Assembly (NCBI GenBank): GCA_964401485.1
Contig: CAYNYL010000003.1
Coordinates: 18,365 to 82,364 of the forward strand
From: an uncultured Gammaproteobacteria bacterium
GTDB lineage: Bacteria; Patescibacteriota; Patescibacteriia; UBA9934
Reading direction: 5' to 3'
DNA length: 64,000 bases
Within the stretch, counting starts at the first letter, position 1; every line of letters begins with the position of its first letter. Of the stretch, positions 9,612 through 63,015 are shown piece by piece. The notes below the pieces were generated by a model. It worked only from the letters and a program-made list of their open reading frames with translations, was not told the origin of the DNA and made no database searches. Made by a program: the position numbers and the translations under genes.

Positions 9612-9640
9612 TTGACTTTTTGGCCACAATATGCTATATT
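9612..9640 (+). promoter_or_regulatory. Sigma70-like promoter for the DGR target gene (TTGACT-17-TATATT, with extended -10 TGC)
   Basis: cTTGACTttttggccacaatatgcTATATT. Perfect 17-nt spacer. Confidence 0.55.
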
Positions 9641-9775
9641 AACTCCTGTACTTTTCATCTGCGCTAAGATTGGTTATAGCAAAAAGTGGCTTGATAATAG
9701 GCTATTTCTCGCTATGACCAATTCGGTCTACAGCTCCACCTCGGATAGAGGGATGCTAGAAAAAAGGATGACGCC

Positions 9776-10399
9776 ATGACCCAGATCATGACCCCATCGA
9801 AGACCACGACCGACGGCCAGATCATCAAGGCCACCGCGAACTTCCGAGCCATGCTCGAGAAGCATGCGGGGGAGTTCTCCGCCGATGCCGTGCAAACGGT
9901 GCTCGGCGATCCGGGACTTGCTGGCGAGATGCTCGCGGTGCTTCGTAGACGTGTCGAGGCCATCTCGAACATCATCGTTCGCAAGGTCACGGTGAATCGC
10001 ACCCGCTCCGCGCAGGATGCCCTCAAGGCCACGGGTCGTGTCATGTACACAGACTCCGCAGTCGTGGAAGCGGTGCCGAGCGGCGAGGGCGAGGAGGCGG
10101 AGATCTGCCTCTTCAAGCTCGACCTGTCGAAGCGCGGCGGATGGATCTCGGATGACGATCTCGAGAAAGAGTTCGATCTCCGAGGCCTGAAGCCCGTCGA
10201 CCCGTTCGCGCTCGCTGCGCTGAACGAGGCCGATCCGGCCTTCGCTGACGAGAAGCCGAACGCGACCCACTGGAAGGATGTGCAGGGCGACTGGTGCTAT
10301 GCGGTCTTCTACGGGTGGTTCGGCGAGCGCCGGGTTTCTGTCAACCGTCACGACTACGATTGGTACGGCAGCTGCTGGTTCGCCGGCGTCCGCAAGTAG
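9776..10399 (+). CDS. DGR variable (target) protein with C-terminal VR, likely CLec-type fold
   Basis: 207-aa ORF, markedly GC-rich and GC3-biased. Its last ~35 codons (DWCYAVFYGWFGERRVSVNRHDYDWYGSCWFAGVRK) form the VR that pairs with the downstream AAC-rich TR. Confidence 0.8.
   Translation: MTQIMTPSKTTTDGQIIKATANFRAMLEKHAGEFSADAVQTVLGDPGLAGEMLAVLRRRVEAISNIIVRKVTVNRTRSAQDALKATGRVMYTDSAVVEAVPSGEGEEAEICLFKLDLSKRGGWISDDDLEKEFDLRGLKPVDPFALAALNEADPAFADEKPNATHWKDVQGDWCYAVFYGWFGERRVSVNRHDYDWYGSCWFAGVRK
10290..10395 (+). repeat. DGR variable repeat (VR) at the 3' end of the target gene, ending in a GC-rich IMH-like segment
   Basis: About 105 bp aligned to TR at 10724..10828. 18 mismatches, 17 of them where TR has A. 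The last ~20 bp (ggttcgccggcgtccgcaa) are identical. Confidence 0.85.
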
Positions 10400-10449
10400 C
10401 CCTTCGCTCTCGAGTTCTAGGGGCTTTTGTCCCTTTGGACTTAGCTCTT

Positions 10450-10489
10450 GGCCCCGTTCCGATTCCTCGGGACGGGGCCTGTGTTTTTC
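10450..10489 (+). terminator. Hairpin downstream of VR (GGCCCCGT...ACGGGGCC plus T-run): target-gene terminator and/or DGR homing-associated stem-loop
   Basis: 8-bp perfect GC-rich stem followed by tgtgtttttc, about 50 nt after the stop. Confidence 0.55.
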
Positions 10490-10723
10490 AAATTAAGTTA
10501 TAATAACTTTGGTAGTAGGTGAGTAGGCGAACGGTCAAGGCTTTTCGCTACCGAATCCAGTATCCATGCGTTTCGAGTATTCGCGGCTATGGTTTCGAAT
10601 AGAGTGTCGCATGCAGACTCTTCAAAAATGAAGCTACTTGGTACGGGATTTTATGGTATTGTGATGCCGAATGCGATTCAGCTTCGAGAAATTCTAGGGG
10701 CGGTGGCACAGAAGGAATCCTGT

Positions 10724-61973: not shown

Positions 61974-61975
61974 CT

Positions 61976-62572
61976 ATGCGCTATATTACAAGCCATCGAC
62001 AGGTAAAGCGTGCACGGTTTCAAACATATGCAGTGCTTAGTATTGTCGTTTCAGCGTTCGCGATCGTTGTCGTAACGGCACTGCTCTTTAAAAGTTTGCG
62101 AGGCGGGGATAGCGCGGACGCGATTGTGGCGGACCCGGCGGACGAGACCGAGAACGAAGTCGCGACGACGGTGGCGGTGGCGGAAGAGCCTGTTCCCGAG
62201 GTCGTCGTGGCGGAAAAACCCTTCGAAGAAATTACGCTTGGTCCGGCGCCGAGCTATGACGGATTTTCGGGAATTGCACGACGCGGGAGGGAAGGGGATC
62301 TTTATACGCACGTCATTGTTGCGTCCCTTCCTCCAATCGATTCTGCCACGAGCTACTATGAGGCTTGGCTTGTAAAGCCGGGTGTGACCGGATTTTTATC
62401 GGCGGGCGATTTTTTTCCAAGGCAGGATGGAAAATGGGGTCTTCTTTTTGAACAAACGGTTGCGGAGGCTCCGATTGATATTGATGAGTATACGAATGTC
62501 ATCGTGACGATTGAGGCGCGAGACGAGAATCCGGCACCGTCCCCAACACACGTCCTTCGGGGGAGCTTCTAA
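61976..62572 (+). CDS. Membrane-anchored protein with RskA-like (anti-sigma-K C-terminal) domain, putative
   Basis: Single N-terminal TM. YYEAWLVKPGVTGFLSAGDFFPRQDGKWGLLFEQ fits the anti-sigma factor C-terminal domain pattern. Confidence 0.4.
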   Translation: MRYITSHRQVKRARFQTYAVLSIVVSAFAIVVVTALLFKSLRGGDSADAIVADPADETENEVATTVAVAEEPVPEVVVAEKPFEEITLGPAPSYDGFSGIARRGREGDLYTHVIVASLPPIDSATSYYEAWLVKPGVTGFLSAGDFFPRQDGKWGLLFEQTVAEAPIDIDEYTNVIVTIEARDENPAPSPTHVLRGSF

Positions 62573-62624
62573 AACAAAACGCGGGAACATCTTTCGATGT
62601 CCCCGCAGACGCCTGCCCCGGCTT

Positions 62625-62900
62625 CTATTCGCGCCGGTAGCGGACGTACTCCGCATCCGCGAGTCTGTCATCCGGCACGAATCTCGTTCCGGTGATGTGG
62701 TTCATGGCATCGAGTACGTCATTGATCTCGACGTTGGCCTCGAGTTTCAGCTTGTCGTCGTGACCGTGCCAGAGCACGGTGTCGTAGGTGCCGGCTTCGT
62801 TTCGCCGACTCATCGACACGAGATTGCGTTTCGGTTCGAATGTGATCAACCGGACGTTGGTCAGCCCCTCCGCCATGGTTTCTAGCAACTCGTCGAGCAT
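62625..62900 (-). CDS. Hypothetical GC-rich small protein (91 aa)
   Basis: TTGACTTTTT-type promoter at 62936..62963. No family assigned. Confidence 0.4.
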   Translation of the reverse strand: MLDELLETMAEGLTNVRLITFEPKRNLVSMSRRNEAGTYDTVLWHGHDDKLKLEANVEINDVLDAMNHITGTRFVPDDRLADAEYVRYRRE

Positions 62901-63015
62901 CTAGCCCCCTGTAGTCGATTCGCGATCGACCGGGAACTCTACCAAATCTACGGAAAAAGTCAATAATAATGGCTGTATCTCGACAAAAAACGGAAATCCG
63001 GCTATCCTCCCCTCT

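Follow-up and report, generated by a model that had tools for sequence, protein, structure and literature searches.

Genes and predicted promoters at the four sites

The window, by which we mean the whole 64,000-nucleotide stretch of DNA that was analyzed, is chromosomal (uvrD, tgt, ATP synthase, RNR, and tRNAs are present), and its host is an uncultured bacterium, probably of the Patescibacteria. With 8.8 kb added on its left and 1.9 kb on its right, the analysis covered about 75 kb of the genome. The window harbors four exact copies of TTGACTTTTT, at 9612-9621 (+), 59138-59129 (-), 59837-59828 (-), and 62963-62954 (-), in line with the four occurrences reported in the original prediction. 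All four are intergenic and have the same orientation as the gene that follows, and three assemblies obtained independently from the same strain agree on the copies. The genes that follow are listed below, L001 being a sister species whose UvrD is 93% identical.

9776..10399, + strand: g1, target gene of a DGR, 207 aa, 63.1% GC, with the VR at its 3' end (10295-10400)
58188..59021, - strand: g2, 277-aa ORFan, 57.3% GC, SD GAGGGAGG
59210..59779, - strand: g3, 189 aa, 58.6% GC, 41% identical to its L001 ortholog
62625..62900, - strand: g4, 91 aa, 57.6% GC, 35% identical to its L001 ortholog

None of the four matched Pfam or NCBIfam. Of these genes, g3 and g4 are fast-evolving and g2 is strain specific: it is absent from L001, and no homologue was found among 5.8 billion proteins. 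In the public record, g2 is 289 aa long and starts at 59057. By eye, the C terminus of g3 looks like a winged helix; g4 is called as a gene with identical sequence in public assemblies. The genes had been described as GC rich, which holds, although they are only modestly above the genes of the window (52.1% ± 4.4%).

Each copy of TTGACTTTTT coincides with the start of a predicted promoter:

9612..9640, + strand: P1, promoter of the DGR target; -35 TTGACT at 9612-9617, T-tract at 9618-9621, 17-nt spacer, TGc, -10 TATATT at 9635-9640
59110..59138, - strand: P2, promoter of the ORFan g2; -35 TTGACT at 59138-59133, T-tract at 59132-59129, 17-nt spacer, weak -10 GATGAT at 59115-59110, no TG
59809..59837, - strand: P3, promoter of g3; -35 TTGACT at 59837-59832, T-tract, 17-nt spacer, TGg, -10 TAGTTT at 59814-59809
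62936..62963, - strand: P4, promoter of g4; -35 TTGACT at 62963-62958, T-tract, 16-nt spacer, TGg, -10 TAGAGT at 62941-62936

The hexamer positions originally given are correct, and a -10 element indeed follows at 16 to 17 nt in all four cases, that of P2 being weak. The hexamer TTGACT matches the sigma70/sigmaA -35 consensus TTGACA at five of six positions. P1, P3, and P4 harbor a -10 of the form TAnnnT at the 16 to 18 nt typical of these promoters, preceded by an extended -10 (TGn), whereas GATGAT in P2 (17 nt) is only a weak match and the TG is absent. All four promoters are intergenic, on the coding strand, and followed by genes with their own translation signals: the leaders measure about 25 to 135 nt and carry SD-like GGAGG, GAGGGAGG, or AGGGGG. 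P3 stands back-to-back with the uvrD promoter (TGgTAAAAT, 59831+), and P4 is divergent from the tgt promoter (62980+). We infer that transcription starts at P1 to P4, each of which would drive its own leadered, SD-bearing transcript. Three terminator-like structures lie nearby:

9545..9575, + strand: intrinsic terminator of an AcrB-like gene, upstream of P1; z = -5.8, then UUUUGAC
59150..59185, - strand: terminator-like hairpin, located after the g3 stop and ahead of P2; z = -3.4, then CUUUUGUUU
58139..58167, - strand: terminator downstream of g2; z = -5.75, homologous to the hairpin directly after g3 in L001

Predicted terminators insulate both P1 and P2 from the preceding gene. Relative to L001, terminator, P2, and the ORFan g2 together form a strain-specific insertion.

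Frequency and placement of the 10-mer

In dinucleotide-preserving shuffles of the window, TTGACTTTTT is expected at a mean of 0.31 copies, and at least four copies were reached in 0 of 100 shuffles. The count by itself is unremarkable, since 106 different 10-mers are present at least four times in the window. When one mismatch was permitted, nine copies were found against 7.6 expected, and there was no excess. The notable feature of the set is that all four copies fall into about 3.6 kb of intergenic DNA.

Homopolymeric spacer starts are common in the window

We took a census of predicted promoters in the window, 22 in number, and read it base by base along the spacer; promoters and start sites are consensus-match predictions, and we chose the set on hexamer and TG criteria. 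The first three spacer bases were AAA in seven promoters and TTT in five, i.e., homopolymeric in 12 of 22 (P[>=12 of 22] = 4e-12 under intergenic composition), and mixed A/T triplets never occurred. TTTT directly after the -35 was observed five times, compared to 0.11 expected in 22 promoters. Further along the spacer, positions 6 and 7 were about 75% G/C, followed by an A/T patch and then by T-G-(C/G). Bacterial core promoters have been described with this same succession of a -35-proximal A/T tract (mainly thymine), a G/C patch, a second A/T tract, and a G-rich/TG region (PMC12641261, NAR 2025), and P1, P3, and P4 as well as the census agree with this four-region layout at every base. Unlike in that study, where the tract is mainly thymine, the tract here is strictly homopolymeric and A is commoner than T (7 versus 5). 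The promoters used for comparison were the following:

13701..13729, - strand: fifth T-run promoter, of an rRNA methyltransferase gene (TTGGCATTTT); TTGGCA-TTTT..TATGAT, mirrored by the A-run promoter at 13714+
13714..13742, + strand: A-run promoter of a DEAD-box helicase gene; TTGACG-AAAA..TGcTAGTAT
6369..6397, + strand: A-run promoter of the AcrB-like gene; TTGACA-AAAA..TGcTAAAAA
29083..29111, - strand: A-run promoter of gene 28574-29035 (66.9% GC, unannotated); TAGACA-AAAA..TGaTAGACT, 17-nt spacer
36473..36501, + strand: A-run promoter of gene 36541-37992 (62.7% GC, unannotated); TTGACA-AAAT..TATGAT
58093..58121, - strand: A-run promoter of gene 57576-58075; TTGACG-AAAT..TACACT (L001 ortholog, TTGACT-AAAAA..TACAAT)
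62980..63008, + strand: A-run promoter of tgt; TCGACA-AAAAA..TATCCT, with the ATG 7 nt past the -10 (L001 ortholog, TCGACAAAACAG..TATAGT)

In type, the -10 boxes of P1 to P4 do not differ from those of the A-run promoters. The four exact T-run promoters precede genes that are above average in GC and fast-evolving or strain specific, an association that is weak (Fisher p = 0.06), and the two most GC-rich unannotated genes, 28574-29035 and 36541-37992, are both on A-run promoters. For the former, the original prediction had pointed to a related element, GAGTCTTTTTGG, at about 29080. This sequence is no match to a -35 and sits in the leader just downstream of a better promoter (TAGACA-17-TAGACT with TGa), which starts 30 nt further upstream, at 29111 (-). 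Nor does GAGTCTTTTTGG qualify as a hairpin, its fold not exceeding that of shuffled sequences (z = -0.6).

The T-run is replaced in L001, and no extended homology links the four sites

At the L001 orthologs of P3 and P4, the position, TTGAC, the spacing, and the TG are retained, but the T-run is replaced (TTGACAAAAC and TTGACATCTA), with AAAAC or TCTAG standing where the window has TTTTT. The L001 promoter of g3 reads TTGACAAAACC..TGgCATTCT and that of g4 TTGACATCTAG..TTGTACTCT. The motif is thus not kept at orthologous promoters in this relative, as a motif of a dedicated regulator would be. The 10-mer was also absent from all 11 of the closest uvrD loci (L001 to L011, about 155 kb of Patescibacteria-type MAGs).

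Anchored pairwise scoring of the flanks put the resemblance among P1 to P4 at the level of random promoter pairs, so that the homology beyond the core that marks a mobile module or repeat element is missing. The remainder of the P1 spacer is nearest to the A-run housekeeping promoters at 13714+, 6369+, and 15323+. A MAFFT alignment of the four promoter regions gave no block in common but was uninformative, with P1 mis-anchored on a nearby TTGACTTTGGC. Beyond the 10-mer, the generic -10, and the TG, no dyad, operator, or extended sequence common to P1 to P4 was found. No sigma factor gene was present among the roughly 52 window ORFs scanned, an incomplete set.

P1 belongs to a conserved DGR module

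The DGR target gene 3' of 9612 is genuine: the VR (10295-10400) is accompanied by a TR at 10729-10834 and an RT gene at 11238-12224, and 14 of the 17 TR/VR mismatches fall on TR adenines (+ strand). In the public annotation, the target gene is placed on the wrong strand. The idea that g2 to g4 are remote DGR targets sharing a promoter was rejected, as the TR matches a single VR in the window.

Of 36 related DGR cassettes scanned, 32 have a strong predicted promoter 1.1 to 1.95 kb (mostly 1.5 to 1.8 kb) ahead of the RT start; over the 36, the spacer starts with TTT in eight and AAA in six. Between P1 and g1 we found the following element:

9670..9721, + strand: covarying hairpin, conserved, within the 5' leader of the mRNA for the DGR target; it belongs to the P1 module, and P2 to P4 lack it

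The hairpin shows strong covariation, is present in 27 related DGR loci, and was not found in Rfam; a search of the window with the DGR leader model matched P1 only. By sequence comparison, related DGR cassettes share a conserved promoter-leader-target module to which P1 belongs, and the predicted hairpin is specific to this DGR family. It is a candidate for a new cis-regulatory or DGR-associated RNA and, although a by-product of our analysis, is more interesting than the motif itself.

A generic housekeeping promoter probably accounts for the repeated 10-mer

Most probably, TTGACTTTTT combines the -35 hexamer TTGACT with the opening four bases of the spacer in four independent predicted promoters of the housekeeping type (sigma70/sigmaA); we saw no sign of a special regulatory or mobile role. 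Sigma region 4 would read TTGAC, and the sixth -35 position would be read only weakly and so merge with the following run. The run of four to five T's at about -30 to -26 would be the T form of a homopolymeric A/T tract adjoining the -35 that is presumably found in most promoters of the genome. We infer for this tract a mode of action that probably involves DNA shape, namely, an intrinsically bent helix with a narrow minor groove; its role would be to adjust the strength of the promoter or the trajectory of the spacer and not to bind a dedicated factor. Under a grammar of TTGAC, W-run, G/C patch, A/T patch, TG, and -10, TTGAC followed by T5 would be one of two very common outcomes. We assume here that A-runs and T-runs are interchangeable. 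Points against this generic model are that it does not explain the association of the T-run with high-GC, fast-evolving or strain-specific genes (p = 0.06), that P2 has a poor -10 (GATGAT) without TG, and that A5 is no equivalent of T5 in the ECF promoters of B. subtilis (PMC5758882).

P1 to P4 agree with extended -10 sigma70/sigmaA promoters (TGnTAnnnT) in their TTGACx hexamer, 16- to 17-nt spacer, TAnnnT box, a TG at -15/-14 (except in P2), and intergenic location after terminators. Nothing essential differs, apart from the weak -10 and missing TG of P2 and the fact that the promoters are predicted from sequence. A T4-5 run right 3' of the -35 element is also known from the ECF promoters of B. 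subtilis (tGAAACnTTTT), where this tract (-26 to -29) stimulates activity, probably through DNA bending, and where a T5-to-A5 swap abolishes activity (PMC5758882). However, ECF promoters are built on a GAAC/GAAAC -35 (GAAAC in B. subtilis) and a CGT -10 (CGTa/c), whereas P1 to P4 carry sigma70-type boxes (TTGACT and TAnnnT with TG), and the A-run that kills activity there is the commoner natural form here. In Ehrlichia chaffeensis, which is genome reduced with few sigma factors, spacer A/T content aids the activity of -35-dependent sigma70 promoters; that report (PMC5066175) deals with general AT-richness, in contrast to the defined homopolymer adjoining the -35 here.

The original prediction had proposed a common regulator or sigma specificity, and T-run promoters (TTGACTTTT type, including TTGACTTTTT) could accordingly form a distinct class or regulon preferentially read by another sigma factor or a regulator. 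This would fit the location of all four exact copies before GC-rich, unannotated, leadered genes, one of them a DGR target, two fast-evolving, and one strain specific, as well as the functional difference between T5 and A5 in ECF promoters (PMC5758882). We nevertheless regard such a class as unlikely: the run feature (A-run or TTT) occurs in 12 of 22 promoters, including housekeeping ones, whose -10 and TG extension are the same; an rRNA methyltransferase gene is under a T-run promoter (13729-), while A-runs serve the two most GC-rich unannotated genes; the T-run is lost at the L001 promoters of g3 and g4; and the lack of a dyad or extended common sequence, the sigma factor search in its incomplete ORF set, and the p value of only 0.06 point the same way. 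A bolder version, in which homopolymer polarity (T5 or A4-5) is a regulatory code and the T-run singles out accessory genes that are fast-evolving, strain specific, or diversified, the DGR target among them, for a different reading from the A-run, by a second sigma factor or in another physiological state, seems quite unlikely to us. If true, it would carry the sigma selectivity of ECF T-tracts over to promoters of the primary type in a genome-reduced bacterium.

It had also been suggested that a promoter module moves with these genes, so that the 10-mer would form the conserved center of a small mobile element or promoter cassette copied or carried with newly acquired GC-rich genes. This holds loosely for two sites taken separately, as P1 lies within the module of related DGR cassettes and g2 makes up, together with a terminator and a promoter of its own, an insertion when compared with L001, but the P1 module and the P2 insertion are unrelated to each other. 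For the set as a whole the suggestion is not supported: the likeness of the sites stops at the 10-mer, the flanks score as random promoter pairs, the alignment (with P1 mis-anchored) gave no common block, the DGR leader model fits P1 only, and the 10-mer is absent from the L001 to L011 uvrD loci. Moreover, P3 and P4 are orthologous in position to L001 promoters without the T-run and therefore evolved in place. We rate a mobile cassette as highly improbable, and hold equally little of pure coincidence, i.e., four unrelated occurrences without function. The abundance of repeated 10-mers and the loss of the excess with one mismatch would favor coincidence; the confinement of all four copies to intergenic DNA, on the right strand and at promoter distance with -10 boxes, the shuffles, and the excess of TTTT after the -35 oppose it.

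Several narrower readings were rejected. A phage or plasmid origin found no meaningful match in the phage collection, and the window is chromosomal. The A5 on the opposite strand could geometrically be an UP element of a divergent promoter for uvrD at P3 but not at P1 or P2, whose upstream genes are co-oriented, which excludes it as a general explanation. Reading of the T-run promoter sequences revealed no hidden mirror -35 as in the 13714/13729 pair. A phase-variable homopolymer was dismissed because five T's make a short run and the copies do not differ between the three same-strain assemblies.

As a regulatory discovery the motif is minor, since the spacer pattern has already been described across bacteria. 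The generic housekeeping reading yields a promoter grammar usable for the lineage (TTGAC, A/T run, G/C patch, A/T patch, TGnTAnnnT), which aids the correction of start codons and strands, e.g., that of the DGR target. By the same grammar, several housekeeping genes have their ATG 7 to 9 nt past the predicted -10, suggesting that their mRNAs are leaderless.

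Placement of the repeated 10-mer

The 10-mer TTGACTTTTT, made up of the -35 hexamer TTGACT and the first four spacer bases, occurs in exactly four copies in the 64-kb window, and both the count and the positions of the shared -35 element in the original prediction were thus found again. Each copy belongs to a predicted promoter (P1 to P4) of one gene (g1 to g4).

Exact copies of TTGACTTTTT with their predicted promoters, and the genes behind them
P1, 9612-9621, plus strand: -35 TTGACT, 17-nt spacer, extended -10 TGc, -10 TATATT
P2, 59138-59129, minus strand: -35 TTGACT, 17-nt spacer, no extended -10, weak -10 GATGAT
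P3, 59837-59828, minus strand: -35 TTGACT, 17-nt spacer, extended -10 TGg, -10 TAGTTT
P4, 62963-62954, minus strand: -35 TTGACT, 16-nt spacer, extended -10 TGg, -10 TAGAGT
g1, 9776-10399, plus strand: DGR target gene, GC 63.1%
g2, 58188-59021, minus strand: 277-aa ORFan, GC 57.3%
g3, 59210-59779, minus strand: 189-aa protein, GC 58.6%
g4, 62625-62900, minus strand: 91-aa protein, GC 57.6%

Dinucleotide-preserving shuffles gave a mean of 0.31 copies and never at least four (0/100), and at up to one mismatch there was no excess in the window (9 found versus 7.6 expected). Because 106 different 10-mers, mostly codon-driven, reach at least four copies in the window, the number of copies is by itself unremarkable. 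What is distinctive is their placement: all four fall within intergenic DNA, which totals approximately 3.6 kb, and each is on the same strand as the gene that follows and at promoter distance from it. A plausible -10 element had been predicted 16 to 17 nt downstream of each copy; this spacing held in all four cases, while the P2 hexamer GATGAT is weak and lacks the TG. The genes behind the copies are indeed GC-rich (57.3 to 63.1%, compared to 52.1% ± 4.4% for the genes of the window). None of the four matched Pfam or NCBIfam, and g2 had no homologue among 5.8 billion proteins.

P1 reads TTGACT/TTTT/GGCC/ACAATA/TGC/TATATT. Strong terminator hairpins insulate P1 (9545-9575, z = -5.8) and P2 (59150-59185, z = -3.4) on their 5' side, and P3 and P4 stand back-to-back with the predicted promoters of uvrD and tgt, respectively. 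A near-duplicate, TTGACTTTGGC, lies at 9571-9581 (plus strand), 41 nt upstream of TTGACTTTTTGGC at 9612-9624 (plus strand); it shares bases with the T-tail of the preceding terminator, has a possible -10 of its own (TATTTT, at 16 nt), and may be a candidate second promoter in tandem with P1. In the g4 leader, a hairpin at 62901-62938 (minus strand, z = -3.15) places the SD-like AGGGGGCU in a stem with the transcript's 5'-terminal bases and could occlude translation initiation.

Spacer composition of the window promoters

We searched the window for hexamers resembling TTGACA and TATAAT, gave extra weight to a TG, left the spacer sequence out of the score, and obtained 22 plausible promoters adjoining gene starts. 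A/T accounts for about 80% of spacer positions 1 to 4, and wherever this tract occurs it is homopolymeric. Seven of the 22 spacers open with AAA and five with TTT, with no mixed A/T triplet; at least 12 such starts in 22 has a probability of 4e-12 under intergenic composition. Positions 6 and 7 are about 75% G/C, followed by an A/T-rich patch and by T-G-(C/G) before the -10.

Further promoters with an A-run or T-run (a homopolymeric tract opening the spacer)
6369, plus strand: A-run, AcrB-like gene
13714, plus strand: A-run, DEAD-box helicase gene
62980, plus strand: A-run, tgt
58121, minus strand: A-run, gene 57576-58075
29111, minus strand: A-run, gene 28574-29035, function unassigned, 66.9% GC
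36473, plus strand: A-run, gene 36541-37992, function unassigned, 62.7% GC
13729, minus strand: fifth T-run promoter, TTGGCATTTT, rRNA methyltransferase gene

Genes 28574-29035 and 36541-37992 are the two most GC-rich genes of the window without assigned function, and both have A-run promoters. Since A-runs serve these two genes and TTGGCATTTT serves an rRNA methyltransferase gene, the association of T-runs with GC-rich genes of unassigned function is weak (Fisher p = 0.06). In a further 8.8 kb of the same genome, TTGACTTTT was absent and one additional A-run promoter was found.

The divergent promoters at 13714-13729 overlap in a near-palindromic -35 core, TTGACG-AAAA-TGCCAA, which gives TTGACG in one direction and TTGGCA in the opposite one; TTGTCA and TTGACA at 2937/2943 overlap in the same manner.

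The sequence GAGTCTTTTTGG, originally taken for a related -35 element of 28574-29071, is no -35 match: it lies within the leader of 28574-29035, whose proper promoter (TAGACA-AAAA...TGaTAGACT) starts at 29111 (minus strand). The fold of the small inverted repeat that contains GAGTCTTTTTGG is no better than those of shuffles (z = -0.6).

Flanking sequences and the sister species

Promoter pairs were anchored at the -35 box and scored by global alignment over 32 nt past the 10-mer and 30 nt before it. The flanks of P1 to P4 were no more alike than random pairs among the 22 promoters; the best pair, P3-P4, scored 3, compared to a mean of -5.2 (sd 4.7, maximum 9) for random pairs. A common operator or a mobile promoter module was therefore rejected, the flanks being at background beyond the 10-mer. 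The remainder of the P1 spacer, GCCAcAAtATGCTA, is closest to the A-run promoters 13714+, 6369+, and 15323+.

The uvrD locus of a sister species (L001) is syntenic with the window, with 93% protein identity in UvrD and about 78% DNA identity in the flanks.

Orthologous promoters in the window and in L001
g3 promoter: window TTGACTTTTTC..TGgTAGTTT; L001 TTGACAAAACC..TGgCATTCT
g4 promoter: window TTGACTTTTTC..TGgTAGAGT; L001 TTGACATCTAG..TTGTACTCT

Position, TTGAC, spacing, and TG are kept at both promoters, but the T-run is not, and at g3 an A-run stands in its place. The sixth position of the -35 hexamer is the least conserved in E. coli promoter compilations. Non-conservation of the T-run is as predicted for a feature of shape or strength and not for an operator or sigma-specific element. 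Together with the lack of homology beyond the 10-mer, it speaks against the common regulator, sigma specificity, or traveling promoter module first envisaged. In the 11 closest uvrD loci (L001 to L011, about 155 kb), TTGACTTTTT is absent.

By their sequences, g3 and g4 are fast-evolving GC-rich genes (41% and 35% identity to their L001 orthologs) within a conserved backbone. The unit of terminator, P2, and g2 is flanked by the stop codon of g3 and by a terminator at 58139-58167, whose L001 homologue lies directly 3' of g3; g2 and P2 are thus a strain-specific insertion, or were deleted in L001. In the region that differs between the two species (window 58122-59209 versus L001 3752-3942), the window carries g2 with its own terminator and promoter. 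At the place of g2, L001 3800-3880 (minus strand) is AT-rich, with repeated GTAC-containing motifs (TGTACAAT and CGTACAAA) and the palindrome TGTACCATTTGGTACA, and looks like an operator array.

A spacer grammar that probably tunes promoter strength

The spacer feature of P1 to P4 is already described and not new. Four-region spacers raise promoter strength in E. coli libraries (PMC12641261), and P1, P3, and P4 follow that layout exactly; effects of AT-rich spacers are also reported for Ehrlichia chaffeensis sigma70 promoters (PMC5066175). We consider it likely that P1 to P4 are ordinary promoters with a homopolymer spacer grammar whose run tunes strength. TTGAC and TGnTAnnnT would be bound by the primary-sigma holoenzyme, and the run at about -30 to -26 would tune spacer geometry and hence strength. 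A and T would be largely interchangeable in the run over evolutionary time in this lineage, and four identical 10-mers would be an expected by-product of the grammar.

That T-run promoters form a separate class with its own regulation seems improbable to us. The weak gene-class association fits such a class, as does a precedent in B. subtilis, where ECF promoters have a characterized T4-5 tract close to the -35 box (-26 to -29), proposed to act by bending, and T5 to A5 is deleterious (PMC5758882). However, the T-run is missing from the orthologous g3 and g4 promoters of L001, and P1 to P4 are not of the ECF type, because their -35 and -10 boxes both depart from it.

A candidate RNA in DGR leaders

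Elements of the DGR cassette
10295-10400: VR (variable copy)
10729-10834, plus sense: TR (template), just past the 3' end of avd
10836-11237, minus strand: avd, Pfam bAvd match on record, its start adjoining the RT start codon at 11238 (plus strand)
11238-12224: RT gene
10450-10479, plus strand: 13-bp GC-rich hairpin, 50 nt 3' of VR and the stop codon

TR and VR mismatches fall at TR adenines in 14/17 cases, and g1 is a genuine DGR target. Public gene calls on a Logan contig (L162) give an antisense 207-aa ORF, 9728-10351 (minus strand), instead of the target 9776-10399 (plus strand); that the plus strand is the right one follows from where VR lies and from the adenine-specific mismatches. From the avd strand and the TR placement, a TR-RT transcript would be antisense to the whole of avd. 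The 10450-10479 hairpin could terminate transcription of the target gene or act as a DGR target-recognition hairpin/cruciform; work by Guo and colleagues from 2011 is said to have implicated such a DNA structure in target recognition.

We retrieved 80 metagenomic loci with RTs about 60% identical to that of the window. Among 36 of them that have upstream sequence and were scanned, 32 carry a strong sigma70-type promoter 1.1 to 1.95 kb (mostly 1.5 to 1.8 kb) 5' of the RT start, preceding a 170- to 260-aa ORF; the spacer starts with TTT in 8/36 and AAA in 6/36. Downstream of the -10, two short boxes recognized by eye, GTWCTTTGA and ACTTGYG, recur in many leaders, as does a long hairpin that they precede. 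In a 24-sequence alignment, 18/21 pairs have compensatory changes. Paired cells reach 93.5%, compared to 74% in shuffles (0/500 reach the observed value) and 37 to 47% with slid partners, for seed sequences chosen partly for forming hairpins. A covariance model found one copy per locus in 27 DGR loci, three of them outside the seed.

Leader hairpin in the window and, as examples from loci L082-L158, in three DGR loci
Window 9670-9721, plus strand: g1 5' leader
L110 1865-1916: match
L150 1961-2011: match
L101 3237-3288: only about 210 nt 5' of the RT gene, not 5' of a target gene

The plus strand always scored higher, and conserved G-U pairs argue for an RNA of the target's sense. The model had no match in 1.2 Mb of control loci, no Rfam family matched, and a full-text literature search returned no description. 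The hairpin may thus be a new DGR-associated cis-RNA. Promoter and leader hairpin are common to related DGR loci, which places P1 in a DGR-family module that does not extend to P2 to P4.

Likely origin of the window and putative leaderless genes

The window comes from a bacterial chromosome and encodes an AcrB-like pump, TIM, an M16 peptidase, a two-component system, an ATP synthase operon, the RNR small subunit, RNase HII, UvrD/PcrA, Tgt, and four tRNAs. The closest relatives of its UvrD are from MAGs labeled Uhrbacteria, Kerfeldbacteria, or Patescibacteria and from several TPA bins labeled "uncultured Gammaproteobacteria"; a Patescibacteria/CPR origin is therefore likely. By UvrD similarity, these TPA bins (L001, L002, L005, L006, L008, and L010) interleave with the MAGs, and their labels are probably wrong.

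Better leads than the 10-mer, in our view, are the RNA of the DGR leader and the housekeeping genes without leaders, which seem to be abundant. At 2974, 5610, 16856, 59868 (uvrD), 63016 (tgt), and about 13691 (minus strand), the predicted -10 lies only 7 to 9 nt before the ATG, with no SD, which suggests leaderless mRNAs for several housekeeping genes of the window. The ATG of the L001 tgt ortholog is likewise 7 to 9 nt past the predicted -10, with no SD. In contrast, g1 to g4 all have leaders with an SD (4/4).
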